Positions 3,304 through 22,460 of a stretch of DNA of 23,828 bases are shown here, one piece after another. The stretch lies in the IMG/VR virus record IMGVR_UViG_2740892229_000023, one strand, 5' to 3'. Position 1 is the stretch's first letter, and every line of letters begins with the position of its first letter. The DNA is from a virus. Its lineage: Duplodnaviria > Heunggongvirae > Uroviricota > Caudoviricetes. The position numbers and the translations under genes were made by a program. The notes under the pieces are model-generated. The model made no database searches and was not told the DNA's origin. It saw only the letters and a program-made list of their open reading frames with translations.

Positions 3304-3586
3304 TTTGAGAAAAGCAGCGCGTGGTCGGGAATGCCAGGTAAGAATCACTGGCGTATGTAATGGCAACCCTGAAACGTCTGTACTGGCACATATCCGGCTG
3401 GCTGGATTGTGCGGCACCGGTATTAAACCGCCAGACCTTATTGCCACCATTGCCTGTTCTGCCTGTCACGACGAAATCGACCGCCGCACGCATTTTGTCG
3501 ATGCTGAGTACGCAAAAGAATGCGCGCTGGAAGGTATGGCGAGAACGCAGGTTATCTGGCTGAAAGAGGGGGTAATCAAGGCGTGA
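3296..3586 (+). CDS. ybcO: YbcO-like nin-region protein
   Basis: 96-aa ORF from ATG 3296 ([23 protein letters not shown]...), Cys-rich; matches remembered DLP12 YbcO. Confidence 0.75.
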
Positions 3587-3945
3587 ATACTTACCACATC
3601 ACACTACCCTGGCCTCCGAGCAATAACCGCTATTACCGCCATAATCGCGGGCGCACACACATCAGCGCAGAAGGGCAGGCATACCGCGATAACGTCACCC
3701 GAATCATTAAAAACGCAATGCTGGATATCGGCCTGGCTATGCCAGTGAAAATCCGTATTGAGTGCCACATGCCGGATCGCCGTCGCCGTGACCTGGATAA
3801 TCTGCAAAAGGCCGCTTTTGACGCACTCACCAAAGCAGGTTTCTGGCTGGATGATGCTCAGGTCGTTGATTACCGCGTTGTGAAGATGCCTGTTACCAAA
3901 GGTGGGAGGCTGGAACTGACCATCACCGAAATGGGGAATGAATGA
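3583..3945 (+). CDS. rusA: Holliday junction resolvase RusA
   Basis: GTG 3583; 120-aa translation [25 protein letters not shown]...[25 protein letters not shown] matches RusA. Confidence 0.9.
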
Positions 3946-4082
3946 TGTTTGAGTCTTATATGGCAGAGCGTCTTCGCCGCCGCTGGGTGCGCCTGCGCTT
4001 ATATCGTTTTCCTGGTTCTGTTTTGACCGATTACCGGATACTGAAGAATTACGCCAAAACCCTGACAGGAGCAGGAGTATGA
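3942..4082 (+). CDS. ylcG: YlcG-like small protein
   Basis: 46-codon ORF ([46 protein letters not shown]) overlapping rusA stop; conserved position between rusA and Q. Confidence 0.6.
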
Positions 4083-4167
4083 AGTCAGAGATAACAATCA
4101 ACTAATACTATTTTGTTGATTTTTGCTTGTAATTGGCGTTCTGGTCTGATTTTTGTGGAGTAAGTTG

Positions 4168-4551
4168 ATGCGTGATATTCAGATGGTTCTTGAGCGTTGG
4201 GGAGCGTGGGCGGCTAATAATCATGAAGATGTGACCTGGTCGTCCATTGCCGCCGGTTTTAAGGGATTAATTACTTCAAAAGTAAAATCTCGCCCGCAAT
4301 GTTGTGACGATGACGCGATGATCATTTGCGGGTGCATGGCCCGTCTGAAAAAGAACAACAGCGATTTGCACGATTTATTAGTAGATTATTATGTAGTCGG
4401 TATGACATTCATGTCACTGGCAGGTAAGCATTGCTGCTCTGATGGTTATATCGGGAAAAGGTTACAGAAGGCTGAGGGTATAATTGAAGGGATGTTAATG
4501 GCATTAGATATCCGGTTAGAGATGGATATCGTTGTTAATAACTCTAATTAA
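4168..4551 (+). CDS. quuD: Late gene antiterminator Q (QuuD-type)
   Basis: 127-aa translation [24 protein letters not shown]...[16 protein letters not shown] matches DLP12 QuuD. Confidence 0.85.
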
Positions 4552-4740
4552 TATGCCAGTTGTTTACTAAAAGTTATTAAAAATGGGGCGTTGCAACGCC
4601 CCCAAAAATAAAGGGTAATATATAACAGAAGGTTTATATAGTTAGAAGCAAGGTTGTGCTCCTAAAGGAAGTGGCTTGAGGGAGCCACTTATATGTTGGG
4701 GAGGCAAAGCCTCCCGCAACATATCTTTTTCGTAATCAGA

Positions 4741-5838
4741 TTAGAACTGGTAAACCAGACCTACAGCAACGATGTCATCAGTGCTTACACCGAGTGCTTT
4801 AGTGAAGTCATTTTTGTCAAGCAGGTTGATTTTGTAATCAACGAAAGTAGACATATTTTTGTTGAAGTAATAGGTTGCACCTACATCAACATATTTGACT
4901 AAGTCCTGATCGCCCCATACTCCAAGATCCTTACCTTTAGATTGCAGGTAAGCAACGGACGGACGCAGACCGAAATCGAACTGATATTGTGCAACAGCTT
5001 CGAAGTTTTGAGCTTTATTAGCAACGAAGTGATCAGCAAATACAGTCATATTCTGGGTTTCAGAATAGGTAGTGGCCAGGTAAATGTTGTTAGCGTCATA
5101 TTTCAGACCTGCGGCCCAAACTTCTGCATTTTTACCGGAAGCAAATACTTCAGGAAGAACTTTCCCTGCATTAACTTGAGTGTCGGTACGATCAGATTTC
5201 GCATAAGTTGCACCGATACCGAATCCTTCGTATTCATAGGTAGCAGAGAAACCGAAGCCATCACCGTTACCTTCAGTGTAGTTATCGAAATCGCTACGAT
5301 CGTTTTTGCCTTGGTACTGAGCAGCAAAGTTCAGACCATCAACCAGACCAAAGAAGTCGTTGTTACGATAGGTTGCAACACCAGTGGTACGACCAGTCAT
5401 GAACACATCTGTTTGGGTCCAGGTATCGCCACCGAATTCTGGCAGAACGTCAGTCCACGCACCGATGTCGTATGCTACACCGTAGTTACGGCCGTAATCG
5501 ATTGAGCCGTAGTCACCGAATTTCAGGCCTGCAAATGCAAGACGGGTTTTGTCTTTGGAGGAACCTTGAGATTCAGCGCGGTTGCCTTTGAATTCATATT
5601 CCCACTGACCGAAACCAGTCAGCTGATCGTTGATTTGGGTTTCACCTTTGAAGCCAAGACGGGCATAAGTAGTATCACCATCATCTGCATCATTAGAGGA
5701 GAAGTAGTGCTTAGCATTAACTTTCCCGTACAGATCCAGCTTGTTACTGTCTTTATTATAAATTTCAGCTGCCTGAGCAGACATCGCCATCAGTACTGAT
5801 GCAGCTACAGCAGAAATTGCCACTGTTAATTTTTTCAT
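4741..5838 (-). CDS. nmpC: Outer membrane porin NmpC/OmpD family, intact
   Basis: 365 aa with signal peptide ([23 protein letters not shown]), porin beta-barrel motifs and C-terminal ...GLVYQF; lysogenic-conversion moron between Q and lysis genes. Confidence 0.9.
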
Positions 5839-6189: not shown

Positions 6190-6240
6190 CGCAAATATCA
6201 TTTAGTGGTTTACGTACGTAAAAAATTGGTTATGCTGTTA
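6190..6240 (+). promoter_or_regulatory. Candidate late promoter PR' and Q-utilisation region of prophage 1
   Basis: -10-like TATGCT (6231..6236) just upstream of a short transcribed region ending in a terminator; the block is conserved in inverted orientation at 9395..9460. Confidence 0.35.
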
Positions 6241-6264
6241 AGAGTGGTTACTTCGTCACACAGC

Positions 6265-6299
6265 TTAAACCCGCCGTCGAGCGGGTTTTTCCATTTTTT
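6265..6299 (+). terminator. Intrinsic terminator (tR'-like) upstream of holin
   Basis: Hairpin AAACCCGCCGTCGAGCGGGTTTTT (6267..6290) followed by a T-tract. Confidence 0.55.
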
Positions 6300-6411: not shown

Positions 6412-6623
6412 ATGAAATCCATGGATAAGTTAACAACGGGTGTCGCCTATGGCACCTCAGCAGGTAGTGCCGGGTACTGGTTTTTACAGCTGCTAGATAA
6501 AGTCACGCCCTCACAGTGGGCGGCAATTGGAGTGCTGGGTAGCCTGGTATTTGGCCTGCTGACGTACCTGACAAACCTTTATTTCAAGATTNNNNNNNNN
6601 NTAAGGCTGCGAGAGGTGAATAA
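6412..6623 (+). CDS. essD: Class II holin (EssD-like), copy 1, interrupted by a 10-N gap
   Basis: [60 protein letters not shown] then N-run; stop overlaps lysozyme start (TAATG). Confidence 0.8.
6592..6601. other. Assembly gap (10 N) inside holin copy 1
   Basis: Run of exactly 10 N. Confidence 0.95.
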
Positions 6624-7120
6624 TGTCGCCATCATTACGCAAGGCTGTAGCAGCTGCTATTGGTGGTGGGGCTGTTGCCATAGCGTCTGTGCTCATCACT
6701 GGTCCGAGTGGTGACGATGGTCTGGAAGGTGTCAGCTACATACCATATAAAGATATTGTTGGTGTATGGACTGTATGTCACGGGCATACAGGAAAAGACA
6801 TCATGCTCGGTAAAACGTATACCAAAGCAGAATGCAAAGCACTCTTGAATAAAGACCTTGCCACTGTCGCCAGATAAATTAACCCATACATCGAAGTCGA
6901 TATACCGGAAACAACGCGCGGCGCTCTTTACTCATTCGTTTACAACGTGGGTGCTGGCAATTTCAGAACATCGACGCTTCTTCGCAAAATAAACCAGGGC
7001 GATATCAAAGGCGCATGTGATCAGTTACGTCGCTGGACATATGCTGGCGGTAAGCAATGGAAAGGTCTCATGACTCGTCGTGAGATTGAGCGTGAAATCT
7101 GTTTGTGGGGTCAGCAATGA
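6623..7120 (+). pseudogene. rrrD: Phage lysozyme (RrrD-like) copy 1 with an in-frame TAA at 6875..6877
   Basis: Frame reads [16 protein letters not shown]...KDLATVAR, then TAA, then continues in the same frame [29 protein letters not shown]...CLWGQQ to 7120. Confidence 0.65.
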
Positions 7121-7301: not shown

Positions 7302-7311
7302 NNNNNNNNNN
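7302..7311. other. Assembly gap (10 N) joining + strand Rz to the inverted lysozyme copy
   Basis: Run of exactly 10 N. Confidence 0.95.
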
Positions 7312-7554
7312 AGTGGCAAGGTCTTTATTCAAGAGTGCTTTGCATTCTGCTTTGGTATACGTTTTACCGAGCATGATGTCTTTTCCTGTATGCCCGTGAC
7401 ATACGGTCCATACACCAACAATATCTTTGTATGGTATGTAGCTGACACCTTCCAGACCATCGTTACCACTTGGGCCAGTGATTAACACTGATGCTATAGC
7501 AATTGCTCCGCCACCAATAGCAGCAGCAACGGCTTTTCGTAATGATGGAGGCAT
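7312..7554 (-). CDS. Phage lysozyme (RrrD-like) copy 2, N-terminal 81 codons, truncated by gap
   Basis: [39 protein letters not shown]...NKDLAT then N-run; differs from copy 1 at several positions. Confidence 0.8.
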
Positions 7555-7765
7555 TATTCACCTCTCGCAGCCTTGCGCTTATCTTCTTTAATCTTGAAAT
7601 AAAGGTTTGTCAGGTACGTCAGCAGGCCAAATACCNNNNNNNNNNACCTATTGCTGCCCACTGTGAGGGCGTGACTTTATCGAGCAACTGTAAAAACCAG
7701 TACCCGGCACTACCTGCTGAGGTGCCATAGGCGACACCCGTTGTTAACTTATCCATGGATTTCAT
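7554..7765 (-). CDS. Class II holin copy 2, interrupted by a 10-N gap
   Basis: [40 protein letters not shown], gap, then ...[13 protein letters not shown] by reverse-complement reading; a distinct allele from copy 1. Confidence 0.8.
7636..7645. other. Assembly gap (10 N) inside holin copy 2
   Basis: Run of exactly 10 N. Confidence 0.95.
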
Positions 7766-7832
7766 AACCCCACCTCGCAGATGCGGGTGCTGTGTAATGG
7801 AAATAAAAAGGCCACCTGACGTGGCCACCAGA

Positions 7833-8885
7833 TTATTTCCCCACCAGCTCGTTTATCTCTTTCACTGTCTGGTTAAACCGCTCTGACTCAAGCTCAACAC
7901 CTAAGGCCCGACGCCCCAGCGCCATTGCTGCTTTTATTGTGGAACCGGATCCCATAAAAAAATCAGCAACCAGATCACCAGGTCGACTACTGGCATTGAT
8001 TATTTGCCTGAGCATATCCGCCGGTTTCTCACACGGATGTTTACCCGGGTAGAACTGAACGGGTTTATGCATCCAGACATCGGTATAAGGCACGGAGACT
8101 GATACGGAGAAATAGCGCCGGAGAGATTTAAACTCATCCAGCAATTCAGAATATTTGCGATTCAGTGAATCATAAGATGCCACCAGCTGGTGGTGTGGTT
8201 GTTCCAGTTGTTGTTCCTGAAACTTCTCTGCCGCTATACGGGAAAACAGTGCCTGTAACTTCCGATAGTCAGCCTCATTCGGCAACTGCCACTGACTGGC
8301 ACCAAACCAGTGGGAAACCATATTTTTCTTACCTGTGGCTTCGGCAATTTGTTTTGCCGTTATACCCAGTTCGGCACGAGCATCCCTGAAATACGATATC
8401 AGCGGTGCCATTATGTGCTGTTTGAGTTCCCTTTCTTTTGCTGCATAGCCGTCACTTTTGCCGCGATATGGCCCCTGGTAATGTTCAGCAAACAGAACGC
8501 GCTCTGTGGCAGGAAAATATGCGCGCAGACTTTCTTTATTACACCCATTCCAACGTCCGGACGGCTTCGCCCAGATGATATGGTTAAGCACGTTGAAACG
8601 TTCACGCATCATGATCTCAATATCAGATGCCAGGCGATGCCCACAGAACAGGTAAAGGCTTCCGGCAGGTTTTAACACCCGCCAGAACTGGGCCAGACAG
8701 TGGTCCAGCCACTTAAGGTAATCTTCGTCCCCTTTCCACTGATTGTCCCAGCCGTTGGGTTTCACCTTGAAGTACGGCGGATCGGTAACAATCAGGTCAA
8801 TGGAATCATCAGGCAGGGACTGAATAAAATGCAGGCAATCAGCGTTGATTAAATCAACACTGTTTATTTTTACAGTATTTTTCAT
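7833..8885 (-). CDS. Phage DNA methyltransferase (N6-adenine/N4-cytosine family, DPPY motif)
   Basis: 350 aa; motif [11 protein letters not shown] near the N-terminus and motif I FMGSGST near the C-terminus. Confidence 0.85.
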
Positions 8886-9035
8886 GGATCAGTAAGCGTA
8901 ACTCTGGTAGGCTCACTCTGCTTTTGCGCTAAAGCAGTGGGCCGTGGTTCGCTTGTGACCAGTAAGCATGAGCGAATGGCTGGCAGGTGCTACCAACACC
9001 CACCAGCCGCCCATTTTCACAGCAGGAAACCGCCA

Positions 9036-9263
9036 TTACTGGCAGCGTCTGAATTTATTCCCGTACCCGCCGTTATCCTTCGCCAGACCCGCCAGAACTA
9101 ACTGAGTCAGTATTAACTGGCACCGGGCTTCGCTTACTCCGGTAGTTCTCGTCATCATGCGTGGCGTTACCCACTTGTCAGCAGGTAAGAAATGAAGGAC
9201 TGCGGCGGCGGTTTCTGTCATATCTTGCTGTTTTAGCATGTCTTTTTCCCTTCTGGTTAACAT
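9036..9263 (-). CDS. Hypothetical small protein upstream of methyltransferase
   Basis: 75-aa ORF in phage orientation between the late terminator and the methylase; no homolog recognised. Confidence 0.3.
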   Translation of the reverse strand: MLTRREKDMLKQQDMTETAAAVLHFLPADKWVTPRMMTRTTGVSEARCQLILTQLVLAGLAKDNGGYGNKFRRCQ

Positions 9264-9361
9264 GACATACCAATAACTCTTGTCTAAAAAGCCAGCAAGA
9301 TAAAAAGCCAGTATTCACGACCACCAGCGTGTTTACTGTACTGCACCAGGTTTACAGGTAC

Positions 9362-9390
9362 AAAAAAACCGCTCAGCGGCGGGTTTAAGT
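9362..9390 (-). terminator. Intrinsic terminator (tR'-like) of prophage 2
   Basis: Reverse complement gives AAACCCGCCGCTGAGCGGTTTTTTT; homologous to the 6265..6299 terminator. Confidence 0.55.
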
Positions 9391-9394
9391 TGTG

Positions 9395-9460
9395 TGGCGA
9401 AGTAACCACTCTTAACACGATATAATACTTTTTGCGTACGCGTTAGGGTTTTTATAAACT
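9395..9460 (-). promoter_or_regulatory. Candidate late promoter PR' and Q-utilisation region of prophage 2
   Basis: Reverse complement ...CGTACGCAAAAAGTATTATATCGTGTTAAGAGTGGTTACTTCG aligns with 6211..6260 of prophage 1. Confidence 0.35.
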
Positions 9461-9504
9461 ATGCATCCCCATTCTCGCTATCTTTAGTCGGTCCTGGAAT
9501 ACAC

Positions 9505-10431
9505 ATGAAAGTTAGAAGCATAGGATTTACAATAAATAACAATAACAAAAATATTAATACCGTTGACGTAATGAATGCTTTTATCAACGCATCAAACAGA
9601 GAACACAATCGCACAGACTATACTCGTAAAATTCTCATTTCGGATGTGAATGATTTCTATTATGGATTAGTTGTCACATTCAGAAACCAAAAAAAGAACT
9701 GTAAGTCGCAATTTGTTGATGGTAAATTCCAGCTTAAAATTGAAGATCTTCAAGGAAGTGACAAACTTGCTAATTTCAACTTTTTCTTAATTAAAAAATC
9801 TAATCTTTCTGGTCTCTATATGTATCACCACGGTTCATGCAGTCTGAACACTCTCTTTTCTCATTTAGAAACAATAAGTAATGAATTTATCAGAAATCAA
9901 AATAAAGAAGAAATAAAAAAACTTGGTGATAAACCAAAACAAAAAGAAGTAACTGCAATAAATAAAAAATACAAAGAAAGACTGACTTTCAGCCTTATGA
10001 CAAACAAAAACAACATTCAGAGTGTTTTATGTCAATTCAAAGAGATTAAAAGCACAAGCTTTAAATTTAATTATATAGATTTTAAAGGTGGACCAATGAC
10101 TGCGCTTGAACAATTTGTTAACACCACCACAATAGATATGAATTTTAATTCTAGCGACAGAACAAAAGTGCAACAACTATCTCAGAATCTTTCAAATATT
10201 TATAATTCTATGAGTGGAGTTGCTAAAGCACAGGTTATTGCAGTAAACCATGCAGGAATAGAAAAAACCATTGATTTTATGAACTGCCCTGTTTTTTTTG
10301 AAACATACGATTTCGATATAATTGCCGATAAAGTCAATGGATTGACAAACGATAATTATACAACAAACCCTGTTTTTGATATGATAAAAGAAGAAATGCT
10401 GAACGGGACGAATAAAAATGCCTTTATATGA
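9505..10431 (+). CDS. Hypothetical soluble protein, cargo gene A of the AT-rich cassette
   Basis: 308-aa ORF, strongly AT-rich with Asn/Lys-rich composition, opposite in orientation to the surrounding phage genes; no family recognised. Confidence 0.6.
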   Translation: MKVRSIGFTINNNNKNINTVDVMNAFINASNREHNRTDYTRKILISDVNDFYYGLVVTFRNQKKNCKSQFVDGKFQLKIEDLQGSDKLANFNFFLIKKSNLSGLYMYHHGSCSLNTLFSHLETISNEFIRNQNKEEIKKLGDKPKQKEVTAINKKYKERLTFSLMTNKNNIQSVLCQFKEIKSTSFKFNYIDFKGGPMTALEQFVNTTTIDMNFNSSDRTKVQQLSQNLSNIYNSMSGVAKAQVIAVNHAGIEKTIDFMNCPVFFETYDFDIIADKVNGLTNDNYTTNPVFDMIKEEMLNGTNKNAFI

Positions 10432-10966
10432 ATGGCTAATAACTAAAAGATTGAGGTATCAGTACCTTACACTGCTTGCATTCTCGATCCTGGCATTGCT
10501 TGCACTTTACCTATTGTACAGAAACACACCTAAAGTAAGTGTTAACTTTTTTGATTTTTATCATAAAAACTTACGAGGCTATCTCTTCTCCGGTTTTATT
10601 TCCGTGGGCTCATTTTTATTGAGCCTGCATACCTTTGTCATAATAAATTTACGCGATAAGGTTTTTGCAACTCAGGAATATAAGGAAATTTATAGCATTG
10701 CCACTGGTATACCTATTGACAAAATCAATGATAGTGTACTTTATAAACCTTTAGACAATTTATCCTCATTTATTAATACATCAATATTATGTTCTATCAC
10801 AACAGCAATTGCACAATTCACTATTGGACTTTCAACTAATTTATATGCATGCTTATTTTGCGTATGGCTTGCAATGCTAACGGTATTTTTTTTATTACAT
10901 TGCCTCATCATAATCAGACAAAATATTAAAATTTTATTAAAGCAACAGAGAAAAAAAGGGGGGTAA
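10418..10966 (+). CDS. Hypothetical integral membrane protein (about 4 TM helices), cargo gene B
   Basis: 182-aa ORF overlapping gene A by 14 nt; hydrophobic segments LTLLAFSILALLALYLLY, YLFSGFISVGSFLLSLHTFVIINL, ILCSITTAIAQFTIGL, LYACLFCVWLAMLTVFFLLHCLIII. Confidence 0.6.
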   Translation: MPLYEWLITKRLRYQYLTLLAFSILALLALYLLYRNTPKVSVNFFDFYHKNLRGYLFSGFISVGSFLLSLHTFVIINLRDKVFATQEYKEIYSIATGIPIDKINDSVLYKPLDNLSSFINTSILCSITTAIAQFTIGLSTNLYACLFCVWLAMLTVFFLLHCLIIIRQNIKILLKQQRKKGG

Positions 10967-10975
10967 TTCCCCCTA
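10951..10975. terminator. Possible bidirectional terminator between cargo gene B and Q
   Basis: A7 tract, GGGGGG-TAAT-TCCCCC hairpin, then TAATATT; lies between two convergent genes. Confidence 0.4.
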
Positions 10976-10978
10976 ATA

Positions 10979-11323
10979 TTACAACATTGAAAGCACACCA
11001 TCCAGAAAACCAAGAGCTGTTTGCAACTCTTTTCTTATTGTCCCATCAGAACACTTCTGCTTCTTTGCAATAGTTCTTAGTGAGATGCCGATAACAAAAT
11101 GAGCAATAACCAACTCATACTCTTCGGGCTTATATTTCCGCAATCGCGCAACACAGCTGTCAATCATGATTCCTTCATCATCATCGCATTGTTGGCGTGT
11201 TTTCTTTCCATGAGGTAGTAAACCTTTAAACCCTGCAGCAACAGGCTGCCAGTTCACACCACTGTTATCTGCTGCAGCCCATGCACCCCAGCGGTCCAAT
11301 ACTTCATACATATCACGCATCAA
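10979..11323 (-). CDS. Late gene antiterminator Q-like protein (QuuD-family homolog)
   Basis: 114 aa (MMRDMYEVLDRWGAWAAADNSGVNW...QQCDDDEGIMIDSCVARL) parallels the quuD product at 4168..4551. Confidence 0.8.
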   Translation of the reverse strand: MMRDMYEVLDRWGAWAAADNSGVNWQPVAAGFKGLLPHGKKTRQQCDDDEGIMIDSCVARLRKYKPEEYELVIAHFVIGISLRTIAKKQKCSDGTIRKELQTALGFLDGVLSML

Positions 11324-11337
11324 CTTTCTCCACCAAA

Positions 11338-12333
11338 TCAGGCCAGCACGCCAATTGCCAGCGCACGATCGATAAAACGAAATATCAGCTCCAGCTGGGA
11401 GCCATACTTCTCTTCAAATGCCACGGTATCCGCATGCAGCTCGTCGTGATGCTTTCTGCACAAAGGCAACACAAAGAGGTCATGCGCTTTTGTACCCATT
11501 CCCCCCTGACCGTGGCCTATCAGGTGGTGGGGATCATCAGCGGGCTTTCCACAACATGCACACGGCTGTGTCTTAACCCAGCGCGTGTACTTCTCATTAA
11601 CCCAGCGGCGACGTTTTGGGCGTAACATAAAAGACTCCGGCGACTCCGGATCCACTTTCAGCGCCAGCACCTTTTTTGCCTTATCCTGGATGATGCTGGT
11701 GGCAGGAACCGAAGGCACAAGGTCACTTTCCCGGGTGACAGACGGCACAACAGGCTTTGGTAATCTCAGTGCCTTACGGGCTGCACTTTCCGGTAAGGCA
11801 TCCGCCAGGTCATTACGAATCAGCCACCAGCACAGTTCCGGCATTGTCACAACGTGACTATCATCAAAACCGAGGTCCCGACGCACAACAGACAACACCC
11901 AGCGGGCACAGTTATCCGTTGCCATTGATTCCAGCCGTTCCGTGAACTGATCGCGCAGCTGGTTATCACAGTGCCAGCACAGACGGATTGCGCCCGGAGC
12001 GTGTCGCATTGTGGTCATGTTCTCGCTGTGCCAGTCGGAATGAGGCCACTGGCAGCCTTTTTCACGAAGTAACCAGCTTTCAAGACATTCCACGCCACCA
12101 GCACGACGGATCACTGCCTCATTGCGGAACACGGCCCGAACAACAGGATCATCCGCCAGCGGTTGTGATGCCGCGGGAACGGCACCACTGGCGAAAGATG
12201 AATAACGTTCCGGCTCAGGCTCCAGCAGTACACGCCCCTGCATAAACAGGGGCATCAGCTCTGAACCTGGTCTGAACAATACGATCCCCATACGCGGGGC
12301 AATTTCAGGGGTCAGTAGTGCTCTCACGGTCAC
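11338..12333 (-). CDS. Phage protein with C-terminal HNH/zinc-finger-like motif (DUF968-like)
   Basis: 331 aa; C-terminal CACCGKPADDPHHLIGHGQGG...LPLCRKHHDELH motif; sits in the nin-equivalent region before Q. Confidence 0.55.
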   Translation of the reverse strand: MTVRALLTPEIAPRMGIVLFRPGSELMPLFMQGRVLLEPEPERYSSFASGAVPAASQPLADDPVVRAVFRNEAVIRRAGGVECLESWLLREKGCQWPHSDWHSENMTTMRHAPGAIRLCWHCDNQLRDQFTERLESMATDNCARWVLSVVRRDLGFDDSHVVTMPELCWWLIRNDLADALPESAARKALRLPKPVVPSVTRESDLVPSVPATSIIQDKAKKVLALKVDPESPESFMLRPKRRRWVNEKYTRWVKTQPCACCGKPADDPHHLIGHGQGGMGTKAHDLFVLPLCRKHHDELHADTVAFEEKYGSQLELIFRFIDRALAIGVLA

Positions 12334-12334
12334 C

Positions 12335-13165
12335 TCAATGAACGGTATCGAGCAGCTTTAACAGCTCAGGGAATCGGGATTCGAAGAAATGCGGCTGCGT
12401 CTCGCGCGGATTTGCAGGACTGGTAATGTTCTTGCCGAACATGCAGCCTTTCGCCGTCAGCGACCAGAATTTTTTGATGTTGTTAATCGCGGTACGGCTG
12501 TATCGTTCGCGTTGTTCAACGATCCCCAGCTTCGCCATCTGGTGATATGCCTGATTAGCTGTCAGGCGGATACCATACTGTTTCAGCAGTGCACTCAGCG
12601 ACAGCGTAGGGCGACTTGAGCCATCAGGCGCGTCAGCAGGAGCATCAATGGCATAGCGTGGTGCCAGATTCGGTAAGCCAACAGCCTCCTGGAGTTTCTG
12701 ACAGGCCCCAAGCACAGATGAGTTAGACAGGTTTAACTCCCGGCGCATAAAGTCCAGCAGAATCACGCCAGCCTGCATCTTGTCAGCAGCCTGCCCGGAT
12801 AATTTTTCCGGTGCGCTGGTTACCATATCGAAAGTACGGATCACCTTCAGATGGAATGACGGGCTGATCCACATTGCATAGGCATACACCAGTTCTTTGC
12901 AGACATACGTCCCCTGGTTATTTCCGCCACGAATAACGTTAACTGGCTCTATATTGACCGAGTTGCAAATCTGCAACTCGCTTATTAAACGTTCAGTTTG
13001 CTCATTGCGGAGCCAGAATGCAGGCTTATGCTTATCCAGAGAACCGGCAGCCCTGTGCAGATCGTTCAGGCTGTAACGCCCAAAAGCATCACGACGAACT
13101 TCAATACCATCAATGACCATCAGATTATTCATACTTCGTTTCTCCTCTTGATCAGGCGGCTGCAC
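12335..13165 (-). CDS. KilA-N domain protein
   Basis: N-terminal VIDGIEVRRDAFGRYSLNDLHRAAGSLDKHKPAFWLRNEQTERLISEL resembles KilA-N; true start may be ATG 13132. Confidence 0.6.
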   Translation of the reverse strand: MQPPDQEEKRSMNNLMVIDGIEVRRDAFGRYSLNDLHRAAGSLDKHKPAFWLRNEQTERLISELQICNSVNIEPVNVIRGGNNQGTYVCKELVYAYAMWISPSFHLKVIRTFDMVTSAPEKLSGQAADKMQAGVILLDFMRRELNLSNSSVLGACQKLQEAVGLPNLAPRYAIDAPADAPDGSSRPTLSLSALLKQYGIRLTANQAYHQMAKLGIVEQRERYSRTAINNIKKFWSLTAKGCMFGKNITSPANPRETQPHFFESRFPELLKLLDTVH

Positions 13166-13541
13166 CCGCCGTTTTCTCGTACTTACTGATAGTGATCTCG
13201 ACCTTCCCTTCCGGGATAACCGGTCCCCACTCCACCAGCATTCTTTTCACCTGACTGTCGTCTTCCCACACACCCGCGTGGGTCAGGGCGTCAAACAGCG
13301 CCTTGTTATAGTTGTCCAGATCGCGGATCCGGTTATCCGGAGGAAACAACACGATCTCCACTGAAGCAGGTGCCGACGTTGGTTTTGGCAGACGACGTAA
13401 CTGCTCAACTATTGCTGCGCACGCCGCGCTCTGGAATTTTCGCCCCGCCGCGCTTATCAGGCTCTTACCAGCAAACGCCCCTTTGTTGGGGTGTCGCCAG
13501 TACGTGTTCACGCTGGGCGGAAAAGGCAGGATCAGCTTCAT
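13152..13541 (-). CDS. RusA-family Holliday junction resolvase (second paralog)
   Basis: 129 aa MKLILPFPPSVNTYWRH...RDLDNYNKALFDALTHAGVWEDDSQV, similar to RusA at 3583..3945. Confidence 0.8.
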   Translation of the reverse strand: MKLILPFPPSVNTYWRHPNKGAFAGKSLISAAGRKFQSAACAAIVEQLRRLPKPTSAPASVEIVLFPPDNRIRDLDNYNKALFDALTHAGVWEDDSQVKRMLVEWGPVIPEGKVEITISKYEKTAGAAA

Positions 13542-13864
13542 ACTTTCAGGCCCCTCTCATGTAACCAGTGGGTTGCACGCAGCTTTGCGTTTTCCTCACC
13601 GGCAAGCAGTGCGCGGATAATCCCGACCGCCTCGCTGTCGTCGTCCTTCACCGCGGTATGAAGCGTTATCCCCCGGGCCACGCCACGCTTTATCGTGATG
13701 ACGCCTTTTTTCTCCAGTGCACGAAGATGCTCTACCGCTGCATTCACTGAACGGTATCCCAGCATGGTTGCCACCTCCTGATTGGTTGGCGGAAAGCCAC
13801 GCTCTTTCTGATAAGAAATCAGCATATCCAGCACCTGCTGCTGGCATTGAGTTAACGTCGTCAT
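13538..13864 (-). CDS. LexA DNA-binding-domain-like winged-helix protein
   Basis: MTTLTQCQQQVLDMLISYQKERGFPPTNQEVATMLGYRSVNAAVEHLRALEKKGVI resembles the LexA N-terminal domain; no peptidase domain follows. Confidence 0.55.
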   Translation of the reverse strand: MTTLTQCQQQVLDMLISYQKERGFPPTNQEVATMLGYRSVNAAVEHLRALEKKGVITIKRGVARGITLHTAVKDDDSEAVGIIRALLAGEENAKLRATHWLHERGLKV

Positions 13865-14358
13865 TACGCCCCCACGTAATTCCCTGACAGATACCACTCA
13901 TCACTCGATACAGCGCGCTTGCTGCTTTTCCGTAAACACAGCTCACGACGCGCCAGAAAATTGTTTCGTTCTGGCTGGGAGTGGCTTTCACGGAATGCCG
14001 CCATCCACACGGTTGCAGCACGACGGTATAAGCCCCTGGACTCCAGTTCTTCAGCCTGGCGGGTCAGGCACAAAATCACCCGTGGATCGTTAGTACCGAC
14101 ATAGAAATTGCGCACAGGTCTGGTTTCTCGAACTGGTTGTGGTTCCGGTTCCTGCGCTCTCTCAGTCAGGCGCGGGAAATGTCTGCGTGTATCTCCTTCA
14201 CAACGGTGAGCCACACGCCCACTCTGACGTAACTTGCTTGCTGACTGCAGAACGCGCTGCCGTGAGTAACCAGCAAAAGCATCCGCAATGTCTCCGGAAG
14301 TACACCCCGGATGGGCTTCAATGAATTTCTGAACGTCATTTAACAGACTCATGATCAC
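13864..14358 (-). CDS. Hypothetical phage protein (possible PerC-like motif)
   Basis: 164-aa ORF with ATGA coupling on both sides; motif GLYRRAATVWMAAF loosely resembles PerC-type activators. Confidence 0.4.
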   Translation of the reverse strand: MIMSLLNDVQKFIEAHPGCTSGDIADAFAGYSRQRVLQSASKLRQSGRVAHRCEGDTRRHFPRLTERAQEPEPQPVRETRPVRNFYVGTNDPRVILCLTRQAEELESRGLYRRAATVWMAAFRESHSQPERNNFLARRELCLRKSSKRAVSSDEWYLSGNYVGA

Positions 14359-15296
14359 CCCCTGAATCCTGCCGGGATCTGGCTGTAGTCCACGTTGTCG
14401 TAACTGGATTTGAAGTACGGGTCTTCGCGTTTTTCGGTGTACGTGCTTACGGACGGCGATAAGCGCAGGGAAAGCTCATCCCATTTTTCCCGCAGCTTCG
14501 ACGGGCTGAGCACGTTACGGCACCAGAACGGATCGCGGCTGACGCGGCTGTACATCTCGCAGATTTGTTTGTGAGTACGACCATCCTGCACACACATCAG
14601 GCGAATTTCGTTTGCCCAGGCTGTCCAGTTCGGTTCTTTGGGACGAACCACCTCGCCGTCACATTCGGCAGCCTGCTCGTACAGGGCGATGATTTTTTTC
14701 CAGAGCCACTGTGCGCAGGTCAAATCATCCTGCGTCCCCCACTGGCGCTTTTTAGGGCTGAATACAACCGCATCAGGATGGCGAGTTAAAAAATCCTGTT
14801 CAGCCGTCTGCGTGTCCGGTTGCGAAGCGTCCGGACGAGAAGGTTTTTTATCTGACGGATCATGTTTTGATTTTACTGACGGATCCCCGCCAGATTCTGA
14901 CGGGTGAAAACCCGCTTTTTTGCCAGATTTCGACGCATCAAATTTTGACGGGTCAGATTTTGATGCGTCAGATTTTGACGGGTCAGAATCTGACAGTTGA
15001 GAAAATGCCGCTGCCTGAAGCTTCGCAACGTTAAGCTGATAAACATTCGACGCATTGCGGTTACCCTGGCGACGCGCCTTACGCGTTAACCAGCCTTCTG
15101 CTTCCAGCCGTGCGATAGCCGTTCTGACGGTACTCATCCCCGCGCCAATCTGACGGGCAATGGTTTCAATTGATGGCCAGCACACACCTTCGTCATTACT
15201 GAAATCAGCCAGGCGGGCCATAATTGCCACGCTGGATAACTTCATGCCTGATGCAGCGCAACCATCCCATACATAGCCGGTTAATTTAGTGCTCAT
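14355..15296 (-). CDS. Replication initiation protein (lambda O-like N-terminal HTH) containing an internal iteron array
   Basis: 313 aa; N-terminal HTH region (VCWPSIETIARQIGAGMSTVRTAIARLEAEGWL); repetitive SDPSKSDASKSDPSKFDASKS encoded by the iterons. Confidence 0.65.
   Translation of the reverse strand: MSTKLTGYVWDGCAASGMKLSSVAIMARLADFSNDEGVCWPSIETIARQIGAGMSTVRTAIARLEAEGWLTRKARRQGNRNASNVYQLNVAKLQAAAFSQLSDSDPSKSDASKSDPSKFDASKSGKKAGFHPSESGGDPSVKSKHDPSDKKPSRPDASQPDTQTAEQDFLTRHPDAVVFSPKKRQWGTQDDLTCAQWLWKKIIALYEQAAECDGEVVRPKEPNWTAWANEIRLMCVQDGRTHKQICEMYSRVSRDPFWCRNVLSPSKLREKWDELSLRLSPSVSTYTEKREDPYFKSSYDNVDYSQIPAGFRG
14891..14996. repeat. Iteron array (about six 15-bp direct repeats, consensus CAGATTTTGACGGGT): candidate replication origin
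   Basis: Direct repeats cagattctgacgggt, cagatttcgacgcat, caaattttgacgggt, cagattttgatgcgt, cagattttgacgggt, cagaatctgacag, with an AT-richer segment at 14830..14880. Confidence 0.6.
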
Positions 15297-15305
15297 GACC
15301 GACCT

Positions 15306-15644
15306 CTATTTCCCTGAATTTACGACGAAACTGTTCGAGCGGACTGAAGCATTCATGCTCATAACCTTCGCGGAGGTAGATAACCCGTTGTGTTTCCGGC
15401 TCCCAACGAATGACTCTGACGGGCACTCCGTAGTGATCTTTGAACCAGCGGTTAACTTGTCGCAAAGGACTGTCTCCTTCTGCCGGTTGAAATCACCCAC
15501 AGCCCACTCTGCAAAGCTGTGGGTTACAATTTCCCTGTCACCTGGTACATTCACTGCATAGCAATATTCCACCTTCGCTTTTCCACCCGGTACAGGAAGC
15601 GCAATCAGTTGCGAGCGACGGTAGTGTGTTGTTAAACTGTTCAT
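15306..15644 (-). CDS. Hypothetical early-right protein
   Basis: 112-aa ORF between the regulator-like gene and the replication gene; C-terminal portion looks low-quality and may be frameshifted. Confidence 0.35.
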
Positions 15645-16210
15645 GCGTTAGTTTCTCCACAACCAGAAGCAATCGACGCCACGACGCCCGGAGCTGCACA
15701 CTCGCGGGCGTCATTACTTTCTGAAATGCAAAAAATTTTGTAGACAAGTGCTGCATGCTCCTGCAGCTTCGAAATTGAGAGATACAGCTCGTCGTTAATT
15801 GCTGTCTTCTCATGCGGTTCCACTACACCGTCTTCGATTGCTGAACGAATCTGTTTTGAATAACTGCCGATCTGTTCAATGACTTCCAGCAGACGCTGGT
15901 TAATATCGGCGTTGTCCACATCTTCGACGTCAGGAAGAGACACAAAGACGCCATTTGCAGACTGCGCCACAGCATCAGCAATGAAGTGAGTGCCACCAGC
16001 ACGCTGTAAAACCATTGCCCATCCCAGCGGGAAAATCTGATCGCCATCTGCACGAAGGCGGTTGAATAAAGCGTTTTCTGTTACATCGAGCCAGTCAGCC
16101 GCTTCAGCGTAACCACCCGGCAACGCCGCGATAGTTTTTCTGACAGCTTTCACGTACCACTCAGGCTGTTTTTCTACTTTCCAGTGATGCTTACCCACGA
16201 TTAGCCTCAT
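15641..16210 (-). CDS. Early-right regulatory protein (possibly YdaT/CII-like)
   Basis: 189-aa ORF immediately downstream of cro, in the position of cII-type regulators; family assignment from memory only. Confidence 0.45.
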
Positions 16211-16241
16211 CGTTCTGTGGTTAAAAATTGAAAGTGTTCTG

Positions 16242-16442
16242 CTAATCTTTCGGATAGATATCCGGTCTTAAGTCAGATTTCGTAATTGCACCTGACGTGC
16301 ATTGCTCAAGTTTTTTAGCCAGCACAAAACTGGCTTTTTTATAGCCATTGAAAACCAGCCGTAAGTAGCCAGGTGTTGAGCCAACTTTTCCGGCCAACTC
16401 GCCCTGCTGTTCTTTGGTTAAAGAGTCCCAATACGCTTTCAT
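16242..16442 (-). CDS. cro: Cro-like HTH repressor
   Basis: 66 aa MKAYWDSLTKEQQGELAGKVGSTPGYLRLVFNGYKKASFVLAKKLEQCTSGAI... divergent from cI across a palindrome-bearing intergenic region. Confidence 0.7.
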   Translation of the reverse strand: MKAYWDSLTKEQQGELAGKVGSTPGYLRLVFNGYKKASFVLAKKLEQCTSGAITKSDLRPDIYPKD

Positions 16443-16445
16443 ACA

Positions 16446-16517
16446 ATATGTACCTCCGGTGTACATATTACATGATTGAAATGAACCTTCAAGATACTTG
16501 TACCTTAACGGTACAAG
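16446..16517. promoter_or_regulatory. Right operator region (OR) with two palindromic operators between cro and cI
   Basis: ATATGTAC-CTCCGGT-GTACATAT (16446..16468) and CTTGTACC-TTAAC-GGTACAAG (16497..16517). Confidence 0.55.
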
Positions 16518-16532
16518 GGTTTTAATTTCGTT

Positions 16533-17207
16533 ATGAAAACAATCCATGACATCCGGCGGTCTAACGCCAGAAAACTGAGAGATGGTGTTGGCGGGAATTC
16601 TTCCTTTGCCACTATGATTGATCGCGAGCCAACCCAGACCAGCAGGTTTATGGGAGATGGTGCTACTAAAAATATCGGTGACAGCATGGCACGACACATC
16701 GAAAAATGTTTCGACCTGCCTGTCGGATGGCTCGATCAAGAACACCAGACAACGAACATCACAAAAAAACCTGATGTTTCAATCACTAATAAACAAATCA
16801 CATTAGTCCCTGTCATATCATGGGTACAGGCCGGAGCATGGAAAGAAGTTGGATATTCTGAGGTTGATTTGAGCACAGCAGAAACGTATCCCTGCCCTGT
16901 ACCCTGTGGGGAAATGACTTATATCTTGCGGGTGATAGGTGATTCAATGATTGATGAGTACCGCCCGGGAGACATGATTTTTGTCGATCCTGAAGTACCT
17001 GCCTGCCACGGTGACGACGTTATTGCATTGATGCACGATACAGGTGAAACCACCTTCAAAAGGTTGATAGAAGATGGGACACAGCGTTATCTCAAAGCGT
17101 TAAACCCAAACTGGCCTGAGCCTTACATTAAGATCAACGGTAATTGCTCTATAATTGGAACTGTGATTTTCTCAGGAAAACCAAGAAGATACAAAATCAA
17201 AGCCTAA
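16533..17207 (+). CDS. cI: cI-type prophage repressor (N-terminal HTH, C-terminal S24 LexA-like peptidase domain)
   Basis: 224 aa; C-terminal ...YILRVIGDSMIDEYRPGDMIFVDPE...GDDVIALMHDTGETTFKRL typical of the S24 autocleavage domain. Confidence 0.85.
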   Translation: MKTIHDIRRSNARKLRDGVGGNSSFATMIDREPTQTSRFMGDGATKNIGDSMARHIEKCFDLPVGWLDQEHQTTNITKKPDVSITNKQITLVPVISWVQAGAWKEVGYSEVDLSTAETYPCPVPCGEMTYILRVIGDSMIDEYRPGDMIFVDPEVPACHGDDVIALMHDTGETTFKRLIEDGTQRYLKALNPNWPEPYIKINGNCSIIGTVIFSGKPRRYKIKA

Positions 17208-17218
17208 TCAATGTTTAT

Positions 17219-17243
17219 GAACCTGCTTCGGCAGGTTTTTTTA
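17219..17243 (+). terminator. Intrinsic terminator after cI
   Basis: Hairpin CCTGC-TTCG-GCAGG followed by TTTTTTTA. Confidence 0.55.
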
Positions 17244-17246
17244 TAC

Positions 17247-17280
17247 TTGACAATGTACCTTTGAGATACATAATGTACCC
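17247..17280 (+). promoter_or_regulatory. Candidate PL/OL: near-consensus sigma70 promoter overlapped by operator-like TGTACC half-sites
   Basis: TTGACA (17247..17252), 16-nt spacer, CATAAT (17269..17274); TGTACC at 17254..17259 and 17275..17280 echo the OR palindrome half-sites. Confidence 0.45.
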
Positions 17281-17344
17281 AAGAGAAACAACAAACAGGC
17301 AGGACGCCCACGAAGTAGCCCCCTGGAGCATATGAAGTCCAGGA

Positions 17345-17370
17345 TGATTCGTTAGCAACAAAAAAGCGCC
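17345..17370 (-). terminator. Possible terminator for the convergent gene 17422..17913
   Basis: Reverse complement reads AAGCGTCCTATAGGGCGCTTTTTT (stem plus T-tract). Confidence 0.35.
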
Positions 17371-17421
17371 CTATAGGACGCTTCGCTCTTTAACAATCTG
17401 GATATCCACAACAGTAGCAAT

Positions 17422-17913: not shown

Positions 17914-18406
17914 TGCTGCCGTTAATTCAGCGATCACATTGAATACTCTTATTGTTGTTGGGGATATCCAGATTAACCGAATCCTTGTTGTTGGGGAATA
18001 ACTAGGTCCACCTCGCCTGATGTGGCTAAAAGCAGGCACATAACAGCTAAGTATTTTCAACCAGAGAGAATCCTTAGCGTTGTGGTGAATGCGGCTCAGC
18101 GCACGCGGGTTAAGGTTGAGGCTGACAGTCGACCTTCTGTGGATACCCACCCGCCTGGTGTGCAACCTTCGCCAGGCACCGGGAGGCACCCGGCACCACA
18201 ACTTTATGCTGTGTGTAGTCTTGGCGGTACCAGCTTGTACCCTTGCTTCCGGCTGGTACCGTCCTTTTTACAAAACAGAGAAGAGCATCACCGGACGACG
18301 GGCTCATAACCCAATCCATCCGGGCGGCAGTCACCGCAGGTGTTCTTCTCTGTTTTGTGGAGAAACTAACCGACCTTGCAGGGTCGATATGATGAGGGGC
18401 AGCAAA

Positions 18407-18768: not shown

Positions 18769-18833
18769 TATCGTTTTTAATTAACTGATTATTTATCTCA
18801 TCACTGAATATCTTTATATAGTGAGGACTTATT

Positions 18834-20980: not shown

Positions 20981-21330
20981 TGGAGCCATACAGCCTCACA
21001 CTCGATGAGGCCTGTCATTTTCTCAAGATATCCAGACCGACTGCCATTAACTGGATACGCACAGGGCGTCTTCAGGCAACACGCAAAGATCCCACTAAGA
21101 ATAAATCTCCTTACCTCACAACACGACAAGCCTGCATTGCGGCTCTTCAGTCTCCGCTGCATACTGTCCAGGTGAGCGCGGGTGATGGCATAACAGAGGA
21201 AAGAAAATGTCACTCTTCCGCAGAGGTGAAATATGGTACGCCAGTTTCACATTGCCGAACGGTAAAAGATTTAAACAGTCTCTTGGAACAAAGGACAAAA
21301 GGCAGGCGACAGAACTCCATGACAAGCTAA
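20980..21330 (+). CDS. xis: Excisionase (HTH type)
   Basis: 116-aa ORF ([33 protein letters not shown]...) directly upstream of and overlapping the integrase; extent of overlap uncertain. Confidence 0.55.
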
Positions 21331-22370
21331 AGGCTGAAGCATGGCGGGTCAGCAAACTTGGTGAAATACCTGATATAACGTTCGAGGAAGCGTGTGTCAG
21401 GTGGCTTGAAGAGAAAGCACATAAAAAATCACTGGACGATGACAAAAGCCGGATCGGATTCTGGCTTCAACATTTCGCAGGAATGCAACTAAGAGACATT
21501 ACTGAATCAAAAATTTATTCAGCAATGCAGAAAATGACGAACCGGCGTCATGAGGAAAACTGGAAACTCAGGGCAGAAGCATGCAGAAAAAAAGGGAAAC
21601 CTGTTCCAGAATACACGCCAAAACCAGCGTCCGTTGCAACGAAGGCTACGCATCTTTCATTTATAAAGGCCCTACTAAGAGCCGCAGAGCGTGAATGGAA
21701 AATGCTGGATAAGGCACCAATTATTAAAGTGCCTCAACCAAAGAATAAACGGATCCGCTGGCTGGAGCCCCATGAAGCACAAAGGCTGATTGATGAATGT
21801 CCGGAGCCATTAAAGTCTGTTGTTGAATTTGCACTGGCAACAGGCTTAAGACGCTCGAACATCATCAACCTTGAATGGCAACAAATAGATATGCAGCGCC
21901 GGGTGGCATGGATAAACCCGGAAGAGAGTAAATCAAACCGCGCAATTGGCGTTGCGCTGAATGATACTGCATGTCGCGTATTGAAAAAACAAATCGGGAA
22001 TCATCACCGTTGGGTATTTGTGTACAAGGAAAGCTGTACCAAACCAGACGGAACGAAAGCGCCAACAGTAAGGAAGATGCGGTATGACGCAAACACAGCC
22101 TGGAAAGCGGCGCTGAGACGGGCTGGTATTGATGATTTCAGATTTCACGACTTGAGACACACCTGGGCAAGTTGGCTGGTTCAAGCCGGAGTCCCGTTGT
22201 CAGTGTTACAGGAAATGGGAGGCTGGGAGTCTATCGAAATGGTTCGTCGATATGCTCACCTTGCACCTAATCACCTTACCGAACACGCACGGCAAATAGA
22301 CTCGATCCTGAACCCATCGGTCCCAAATTTGTCCCAGTCAAAAAATAAGGAAGGTACTAATGATGTGTAA
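21207..22370 (+). CDS. int: Tyrosine site-specific integrase, P22-type
   Basis: 387 aa [41 protein letters not shown]...; C-terminal catalytic region ...[39 protein letters not shown]; adjacent to tRNA-Thr. Confidence 0.9.
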
Positions 22371-22384
22371 CTTATTGATTTTAA

Positions 22385-22460
22385 TGGTGCCGATAATAGG
22401 AGTCGAACCTACGACCTTCGCATTACGAATGCGCTGCTCTACCAACTGAGCTATATCGGC
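22385..22460 (-). tRNA. thrW: tRNA-Thr (anticodon CGU)
   Basis: Reverse complement GCCGATATAGCTCAGTTGGTAGAGCAGCGCATTCGTAATGCGAAGGTCGTAGGTTCGACTCCTATTATCGGCACCA folds as a cloverleaf with anticodon loop TTCGTAA. Confidence 0.85.

Follow-up and report, generated by a model that had tools for sequence, protein, structure and literature searches.

The window analysed here is a stretch of 23,828 nucleotides (nt) of phage DNA (Caudoviricetes, IMG/VR record IMGVR_UViG_2740892229_000023) that is made up of two lambdoid prophages, each of them partial, with prophage 1 on the plus strand and prophage 2 on the minus strand. Between the late terminator tR' and the holin gene of prophage 2 lies a gene for a DNA methyltransferase (7833..8885, minus strand) related to M.EcoGII, and the locus raises the question of how a phage keeps such a toxic enzyme silent in the lysogen and then switches it on; the M.EcoGII literature consulted gives no account of this. 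The reading preferred here, to which a probability of roughly 0.7 is given, is that an orphan methyltransferase of the M.EcoGII family occupies the cargo (moron) slot of the late operon, that it would be silent in the lysogen, expressed late in a Q-dependent manner and used against restriction, and that its silencing would resemble that of the com-mom genes of phage Mu. The gene cassette itself is ordinary for lambdoid phages of Escherichia coli and of a known type, a widespread M.EcoGII-type anti-restriction gene in a late-operon cargo slot. What is new is a conserved structured element directly before the methyltransferase gene (8892..9022) and a constrained site resembling an SOS box over its first codons, which together, around the start codon, may explain how the toxic enzyme is silenced. 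These two features and the Com-like or winged-helix genes found upstream are concrete, testable candidates for the parts of a silencing mechanism. M.EcoGII is a widely used reagent in chromatin footprinting and RNA methylation, and the parts of this control region are leads for a tighter control of enzyme expression in biotechnology.

An M.EcoGII-type methyltransferase in the late operon

The open reading frame (ORF) of 350 amino acids (aa) at 7833..8885, in which the first-pass annotation had recognised a methyltransferase, scores 145.9 bits with the profile PF01555 (N6_N4_Mtase), whose cut-off is 26.7 (E=2.2e-42; the match spans residues 29-341 and includes a central insert), matches phrog_67 'DNA methyltransferase' (E=2e-102), and in PADLOC it matches MTase_II / Type II methyltransferase models only. 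Its motifs are ordered as DPPY (residues 35-38), a central recognition domain and FFMGSG (residues 309-314, an FxGxG motif). Both motifs, whose disruption would have spoken for an inactive enzyme, are intact here and invariant in an alignment of nine members of the family. The family comparison that had been proposed as a check places the protein in the M.EcoGII clade, with 81% identity to M.EcoGII across 349 residues, which is the full length (350 versus 349 aa), and 89% identity to the reconstructed ancestor Anc291 over the whole length including the central domain. The sequences of M.EcoGII and Anc291 were taken from Supplementary Table S1 of PMC11551740, as derived from the PDF, with a few errors of optical character recognition. 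By its sequence the enzyme is a beta-class N6-adenine methyltransferase of the M.EcoGII clade, and it shares with M.EcoGI and M.EcoGII the beta-class motif order, the length and the residence in a lambdoid prophage. A search for a solved structure of a close relative gave best PDB matches of E ~1e-24 that cover the catalytic core only. No restriction endonuclease gene is found beside the methyltransferase gene, whose neighbours are a winged-helix ORF of 67 aa and the holin gene, and the enzyme is therefore considered an orphan and not part of a Type II restriction-modification pair.

M.EcoGII was described as a non-specific adenine methyltransferase from a prophage of E. coli O104:H4 C227-11 (Murray et al. 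2018, PMC5778455). In that work, M.EcoGI and M.EcoGII were not expressed in the lysogen and were deleterious once expressed, and it was proposed that they overcome restriction on induction. Homologues of the M.EcoGII type are silent in Shiga toxin-producing E. coli of serogroup O111 as well (PMC6602927), Mom and M.EcoGII have been paired as silent and toxic (PMC12707154), and Anc291 is active on DNA (PMC11551740).

The methyltransferase of the window most likely has little or no sequence specificity. This is an extrapolation from 81% identity, and it is weakened by the approximately 19% of residues that differ from M.EcoGII, most of them in the central domain, which is the target-recognition region. 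The greater divergence of this presumed specificity region, together with sub-threshold NCBIfam matches to specific adenine methyltransferases (YhdJ-type and CcrM), would fit an ordinary sequence-specific orphan methyltransferase with a function in protection or regulation of the Dam type. Such an enzyme is considered very unlikely here, because the identities to M.EcoGII and Anc291 span the full length, central domain included, because M.EcoGII and Anc291, and also SUPREM (Anc284), an ancestor further removed, have been described as non-site-specific (PMC11551740), and because homologues of 92-94% similarity carry the label 'nonspecific' in annotation based on REBASE.

The small ORF, the spacer that follows it and the methyltransferase gene form a cassette of 1.85 kb that is 99-100% identical in the phages vB_EcoS-569R4, cdtI, mEp460 and Ayreon, 96% identical in SfV (orf47/orf48) and about 90% identical in fifteen Stx2c phages; of 5426 complete genomes of E. 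coli, 982 contain it with at least 80% of the query covered. In many phages the small ORF, about 150 nt and the methyltransferase gene succeed one another in this order, with Q or tR' immediately upstream and the holin or tRNA-stx genes downstream; it was found in SfV, Ayreon, Stx2a_1447, 1720a-02, phiP27, Hafnia phage yong2 and phages of Morganella, Providencia and Citrobacter. In Stx2a_1447 the small ORF, the element and the methyltransferase gene keep the same layout and the enzyme is 93% identical to M.EcoGII, so that the characterised enzyme belongs to the same module. The position between tR' and holin is that of the moron slot downstream of PR'/tR', in which stx and other cargo genes have been described (PMC4104026, PMC4587872), and in Stx2a, Stx2c and Stx2e phages the cassette itself lies between PR' and the tRNA-stx genes. 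A difference from those cargo genes is that the gene carried here is one of benefit to the phage and expected to be off in the lysogen, and not a gene of lysogenic conversion.

Upstream of the cassette, prophage 2 carries the antiterminator gene Q (10979..11323, minus strand, 114 aa; PF06530 Phage_antitermQ, E=4.5e-45, with the same label given by RefSeq in a collinear complete genome) and a PR'-like block with a short leader transcript that ends in tR' (9362..9440, minus strand; stem 9380..9368 followed by a T-run), which was located by terminator scan and homology. The promoter PR' of prophage 2 was thus placed by homology and position. The distance from tR' to the holin gene is about 1603 nt in prophage 2 versus about 124 nt in prophage 1, which bears out the additional gap that had been noticed. 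The approximately 70 nt before each tR' hairpin are homologous between the two prophages, which part at once after tR', and similarity resumes only about 25 nt ahead of the holin ATG. Extra genes are therefore present between tR' and holin, as the first-pass annotation had stated, but they represent the replacement of a module rather than a clean insertion. The methyltransferase had also been taken for the first late gene, a place that belongs to the small ORF, the methyltransferase gene being the second after tR'.

A scan for consensus promoters revealed no excess of promoter-like sites, the region having five where 6.7 would be expected, and none of them was convincing as a promoter of the methyltransferase gene itself. 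The sole minus-strand site inside the cassette is weak and lies within the small ORF (9181..9154). As candidates, a promoter belonging to the cassette and an antisense promoter at the LexA-like site described below were both discarded, as none passed the scan and only three or four of the six positions of a hexamer could be matched by eye. The terminator scan detected two terminator-like hairpins before the small ORF, namely tR' and a second hairpin with a T-run between tR' and the small ORF (9307..9328, minus strand), and one after the methyltransferase gene, an intrinsic terminator directly behind its stop codon and before the holin gene (7801..7826, minus strand; 7826..7810 in the scan), which is also annotated in the phages Ayreon and SfV. 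A weak hairpin over the stop codon of the small ORF, followed by TTTCC (9029..9046, minus strand), was read from the sequence and is below the threshold of the scan in the window; its equivalent in Stx2a phage is a strong intrinsic terminator. No canonical Shine-Dalgarno sequence precedes the methyltransferase start codon. The terminators, the lack of promoter enrichment and the lack of a Shine-Dalgarno sequence, taken with the literature on the homologues, suggest silence in the lysogen indirectly and would fit Q-dependent late expression.

The same observations bear on the idea that the cassette is a classical moron, transcribed in the lysogen from a promoter of its own and serving epigenetic regulation of the host or superinfection exclusion. 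The insertion site downstream of PR' is a known one for morons (PMC4104026), terminators stand on both flanks, and the weak site at 9181..9154 might serve as promoter. Since promoter-like sites are not enriched and the methyltransferase start codon lies behind several terminators without a Shine-Dalgarno sequence, this explanation is hardly to be expected to hold. The hairpins at 9307..9328 and 7810..7833 (minus strand) are alike and can be aligned (CTGGTGG.C..G....TGGC.TTTTTAT), and these similar flanking hairpins may mark recombination boundaries of the cassette.

The late-expression and anti-restriction reading of the first-pass annotation coincides with the hypothesis published for the M.EcoGII family. 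It is supported in part, by synteny and family membership: the enzyme appears intact, belongs to the M.EcoGII clade and is encoded between Q/tR' and the lysis genes, even if it is not the product of the first late gene.

A conserved structured element before the start codon

The spacer between the small ORF and the methyltransferase gene measures 150 nt in the window and 138-153 nt across the relatives, and its conservation, with a mean column identity of about 79%, exceeds that of the small protein, whose amino-acid identity is about 50%. The spacer forms a conserved structured element (8892..9022) in which the paired positions covary strongly. Five helices were recognised: P1 (9013-9009/8942-8938) closes a junction with P2 (9008-8997/8989-8978) and P3 (8976-8968/8956-8948), and is followed by P4 (8937-8931/8924-8918) and by P5 (8916-8911/8897-8892), which ends 6 nt before the AUG. 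When 24 diverse sequences are aligned with MAFFT, 78.6% of the cells in paired columns can pair, versus 30-45% when the partners are slid by one to three columns, and none of 500 shuffles of this alignment reached the observed pairing or covariation score. In an alignment fitted to the model, 28 of the 39 pairs are changed on both sides and 81% of the cells pair, versus 29-46% when slid; as the fitted alignment is biased toward the structure of the model, the MAFFT result is the fairer test. Compensatory changes can be followed in individual helices. In P1, TGGGC/GCCCA is replaced by TGAGC/GCTCA in Mixta and by TGGGG/CCCCA in Gilliamella, and in P2, GGCTGG../..CCAGCC is replaced by GACTGTAAAGG/CCTTTACAGTC in Providencia and by GACAGTGAGGATG/CATCCCCGCTGTC in Proteus.

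A covariance model of the element, with which 628 kb from 90 sources were searched on both strands, gave one hit per locus in 70 of the sources and no hits elsewhere. All hits are on the strand of the methyltransferase gene and nearly all end at its start codon; the exceptions are four Vibrio loci, in which a com-like gene follows the hit at close distance. The presence of the element and of the small ORF was counted in 80 species-level genome loci that contain a methyltransferase of the family. The element was found in 60 of them, 38 of the 80 having the small ORF directly upstream and 22 having the element without this ORF, and the ORF was never found without the element. In loci that lack the small ORF the element follows tR' directly (for example, locus L187).

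Several other identities of the spacer were considered and discarded. The ORF that opens at a conserved ATGGGC has anything between 3 and more than 45 codons depending on the locus, so that the element is not coding, and a small peptide was rejected on this inconsistency. With Rfam 15 no match was obtained in the whole window at gathering thresholds, and none at E<=1 in 7600..9600. A tRNA in the spacer was dismissed because ARAGORN finds only a tRNA-Thr gene at 22385..22460. The small RNAs AgvB and AsxR are convergent transcripts of 51-60 nt located 3' of the moron (PMC4104026), the Pas prophage small RNAs are about 84 nt long and restricted to Escherichia and Shigella, and neither kind corresponds to this element. 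The minimum-free-energy fold of the single sequence differs from the comparative structure, and for this reason the comparative model was used. A literature search with the sequence string of the element returned only a primer for the polymerase chain reaction.

Assigning the element to one strand is a more delicate matter, as the individual helices look as if they had been selected on opposite strands. Among the cells that depart from Watson-Crick pairing, G.U exceeds A.C in P2 (54 versus 16) and in P5 (72 versus 13), which is the pattern of a sense RNA, and the opposite bias is found in P3 (154 A.C versus 5 G.U) and P4 (39 A.C versus 11 G.U), an antisense pattern. G.U pairs were consequently abandoned as an indicator of the strand, being contradictory between helices. 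The energy calculated with RNAalifold is also lower for the antisense strand (-31.3 versus -22.2 kcal/mol for the sense strand). The bias of P3 and P4 and this energy count against a sense-strand leader and would fit an antisense small RNA, perhaps driven from the region of the LexA box, that would control the start of the methyltransferase gene in the way of a type I toxin-antitoxin system. The mismatches of P3 and P4, mainly A.C, are those expected for selection on the opposite strand, and the LexA-like box, which has no promoter on the sense strand, occupies the very place in which an antisense promoter would be expected. However, P2 and P5 are biased toward G.U, no antisense promoter passed the scan, and the U-run after the antisense P1 is just 2-4 nt long and variable between loci. 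The distance from the element to the start codon is fixed, also in Vibrio where a com-like gene follows, and the sense strand is known to be within a transcription unit. An antisense RNA seems unlikely, although it, or a function on both strands, may apply, and the fixed place of the element by the start codon together with its location within the known transcription unit favours a leader on the sense strand.

One further locus has been observed in which the element is truncated. In L173 (phiSTEC1575-Stx2k, 3501..4572) a homologue of the small ORF is followed by the first ~50 nt of the element only (the 5' arm of P1, and P2), after which a 237-aa gene annotated as 'HTH domain' (helix-turn-helix) takes the place of the methyltransferase. 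The switch of sequence within the element indicates a recombination breakpoint inside it.

Candidate start-codon signals, small upstream genes and a proposed silencing

LexA operators of the SOS regulon and intragenic repressor roadblocks, such as that of PurR in purB, are well-known means of shutting off a gene. At 8858..8877 the methyltransferase gene contains a palindrome resembling a LexA box, TACTGTAAAAATAAACAGTG, which comprises the coding nucleotides +9..+28 (8877..8858) and covers codons 4-10. It is a 20-bp palindrome of the form CTGT-N8-ACAG with an AT-rich spacer, has four mismatches to TACTGTATATATATACAGTA, all of them outside the CTG and CAG cores, and is the sole CTGT-W8-ACAG in the window, where 0.06 would be expected. 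The pattern CTG-N10-CAG is shared across genera, by 60 of 87 loci, in spite of differences in the encoded residues (KINS, KISS, NLNS, KIHS and others). Within the site, ACT is the only codon used for Thr, Ser is written as AGT or AGC throughout, and the codon preceding Ser has C as its third base in every case. The first ten codons (loci L174-L231) are under strong synonymous constraint, with a synonymous codon identity of 0.88, compared with a gene mean of 0.47 and values of 0.61 or less in the other blocks of ten codons. The palindrome may be a candidate LexA site or, instead, an mRNA hairpin (ACUGU/ACAGU). It has the same CTGT-N8-ACAG form as known operators, and it differs from them in lying within coding sequence with no overlapping promoter.

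In relatives from Vibrionaceae, canonical LexA boxes stand at the promoters. The homologues of Vibrio, Aliivibrio and Psychromonas (L238, L240-L244, L246, L248, L250-L252) are preceded by an unrelated conserved leader about 200 nt upstream, with the layout ATGCCTTGAGTACCTGAGACCCA..GGAGAGGAAGCA..variable GC hairpin..ATTCAAGGCTCT..GGAG..ATG and a long-range complementarity GCCTTGA/TCAAGGC, for which no match was found in Rfam. An invariant ACTGT-N8-ACAG box beside a -10 sequence resembling TATAAT precedes this Vibrio-type leader. In other loci of Vibrio and Shewanella (L235-L237, L249, L245, L247) a zinc-ribbon ORF of 36-42 aa lies directly upstream of the methyltransferase gene, and the best Pfam family of these ORFs is that of Mu Com, PF10122 (34.0 bits for L245 and 24.6 bits for L236, against a cut-off of 22.9). 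In L235-L237 and L249 it is this com-like gene (about -145..-15 from the methyltransferase gene), and not the methyltransferase gene, that is preceded by the enterobacterial-type element, and in L245 and L247 the com-like gene itself has a canonical LexA box ahead of it.

In the enterobacterial cassettes the corresponding place is taken by the small ORF. The first-pass annotation had given it as 75 aa (9036..9263) and had named no strand, and an ORF of this length is indeed present there on the minus strand; its real product is probably of 67 aa, starting at 9239 (9239..9036), since all homologues begin with MLKQQDM and a Shine-Dalgarno sequence GAAGGG precedes the second ATG, and RefSeq annotates the same start. 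The homology search that had been suggested for this ORF assigns it to phrog_331 (function unknown, E=3e-26), and some relatives have been labelled 'TrmB family transcriptional regulator' by NCBI. An AlphaFold model (predicted local distance difference test score, pLDDT, of 86.9) shows three helices and a beta-hairpin, and Foldseek relates it to generic winged-helix domains (TrmBL2, Z-alpha, IclR N-terminal domains and the mRNA-binding domain of SelB), all with E values of at least 4e-3. As the ORF is absent in 22 of the 60 loci that bear the element, it is accessory and not obligatory; it may be the partner or regulator that the first-pass annotation had considered, and the reading preferred for the modelled winged-helix protein is that of an accessory regulator.

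A different role for this protein is suggested by prophage phiPA8, in which an MT-A70 methyltransferase is co-transcribed with a small upstream gene for a winged helix-turn-helix protein, PNB-2, that alters the choice of substrate (PMC10810198); the likeness to the cassette of the window concerns the type of fold and the position. The phiPA8 enzyme, an rRNA methyltransferase, was rejected as the same enzyme because it is of a different family (DPPW, MT-A70, versus DPPY, PF01555), and its genome position and regulation also differ. By analogy, the methyltransferase of the window could act mainly on RNA, or as a holoenzyme targeted by the winged-helix protein, and so tune induction or translation. 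M.EcoGII accepts RNA and DNA:RNA hybrids as substrates in vitro (PMC5778455), PNB-2 redirects its enzyme to 16S rRNA with a shift in induction frequency (PMC10810198), the winged-helix gene stands directly upstream in 38 of the 80 loci, and its fold resembles the RNA-binding winged helices of SelB and the Z-nucleic-acid-binding ones of Z-alpha. Nevertheless, the phiPA8 enzyme belongs to another family and to another location in the phage, M.EcoGII alone is fully active on DNA (PMC5778455), and a gene missing from more than a third of the element-bearing loci cannot encode an obligatory subunit, all of which makes this possibility rather improbable.

The textbook example of how a small RNA-binding protein, encoded upstream, controls a toxic late gene for DNA modification is the com-mom operon of phage Mu. 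The present cassette resembles it in that a late toxic modification gene would be silent in the lysogen, a small gene lies upstream and the mRNA is structured at the start codon. It differs in that the small protein is a winged helix and not the zinc ribbon of Com, in that Mom is not a methyltransferase, and in that no Dam/OxyR or C-protein control is evident in the cassette. The LexA boxes at the promoters of the relatives and their Com-like genes suggest a multilayer silencing in the style of com-mom. No description of the structured element, of the SOS-box-like site or of the Com-like parallels was found in the literature search, nor any paper that combines 'M.EcoGII' with 'LexA', and the published work on M.EcoGII contains no account of an upstream winged-helix gene, a structured element or a LexA-like site.

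In the mechanism preferred here, RNA polymerase starting from PR' in the lysogen would halt at tR' and at the later terminator-like hairpins, and the gene would be kept off by the lack of a Shine-Dalgarno sequence, by a start codon only 6 nt past P5 and by the LexA-box-like site over codons 4-10. Upon SOS induction, Q-modified polymerase would pass the terminators and the methyltransferase would be made along with the lysis proteins and modify many adenines of the replicating phage DNA, so that the packaged genomes would resist adenine-methylation-sensitive restriction in the next host. The toxic enzyme would thus be under a translational and SOS-linked silencing like that of com-mom, with the winged-helix protein as an accessory regulator. 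From synteny and family we infer the transcription from PR' and the methylation of the progeny, and the anti-restriction benefit and the roles given to the element, the palindrome and the winged-helix protein are likewise presumed.

Several observations weigh against this mechanism. No -35/-10 pair of prophage 2 passed the consensus scan at PR', and a counter-oriented insert of two genes (1.46 kb) parts Q from PR' in this prophage. No promoter-like site was found by the scan near 8858..8877 on either strand, and with no overlapping promoter the binding of LexA would need a roadblock mechanism. The small ORF gives no match to PF10122 and is not a homologue of Com. In the collinear complete genome, moreover, the downstream lysis genes are pseudogenes, the lysozyme gene of prophage 2 having an internal stop and Rz being frameshifted, which means that prophage 2 may no longer finish a lytic cycle.

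A more far-reaching version of the com-mom parallel is put forward only tentatively. In it, the hypermethylases of the M.EcoGII family would be silenced by a new, modular control that evolved independently and has three parts: a structured RNA of about 130 nt next to the start codon, be it a sense leader, an antisense RNA or both; a LexA operator within the gene that would serve as a roadblock lifted by SOS induction; and a small, exchangeable upstream protein that would activate translation. As part of this joint reading, and with the same reserve, the protein of enterobacteria would be the winged helix, and Vibrionaceae and Shewanella would use the Com-like zinc ribbon in its place.

The two prophages and their junction

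The holin gene that follows the cassette in prophage 2 (EssD-type, 7550..7765, minus strand, ATG at 7765) is broken by a run of N at 7637..7646. The window contains three runs of exactly ten N (6593-6602, 7303-7312 and 7637-7646), which fall within holin, lysozyme and Rz genes; the cassette and the start of the holin gene are on a single gap-free stretch (7647 onward). The complete genome NZ_CP027355.1 contains a prophage with which positions 7312 to 21500 of the window are 99.9% collinear; in that genome the lysis genes continue into terminase and head genes, and the collinearity ends exactly at 7303-7312. The head-to-head junction of the two prophages thus coincides with an N gap and with the end of collinearity, and their adjacency is probably a scaffold join, that is, contigs joined at collapsed repeats of the lysis genes. 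In the plus-strand copy of the lysozyme gene (6623..7120) an in-frame TAA at 6875-6877 leaves ORFs of 84 and 57 aa, and both prophages may be lysis-defective.

Prophage 1 served as the comparator for the late region and carries, on the plus strand, RusA (3520..3945), Q (4153..4551, PF06530) and a PR'/tR' block (6190..6298). The terminator scan detected its tR' as a hairpin at 6267..6288 (feature 6267..6298), and the holin gene follows without an intervening cassette, its ATG being at 6412. A counter-oriented porin gene (5838..4741, minus strand) is located between Q and the PR'/tR' block. In prophage 2 the interval between Q and PR' is taken by two counter-oriented, AT-rich and overlapping ORFs (9505..10966, plus strand) of 308 aa (9505..10431) and 182 aa (10418..10966), and a similar counter-oriented gene pair is present between Q and the small ORF in Stx2a_1447. 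Neither of the two ORFs has a match in Pfam or PADLOC, and the first one belongs to phrog_2802, of unknown function; their assignment to a defence system was dropped on these grounds. At the other side of prophage 2, the integrase gene (21207..22370, plus strand) adjoins the tRNA-Thr (CGU) gene (22385..22460, minus strand), which is likely the attachment site of this prophage.

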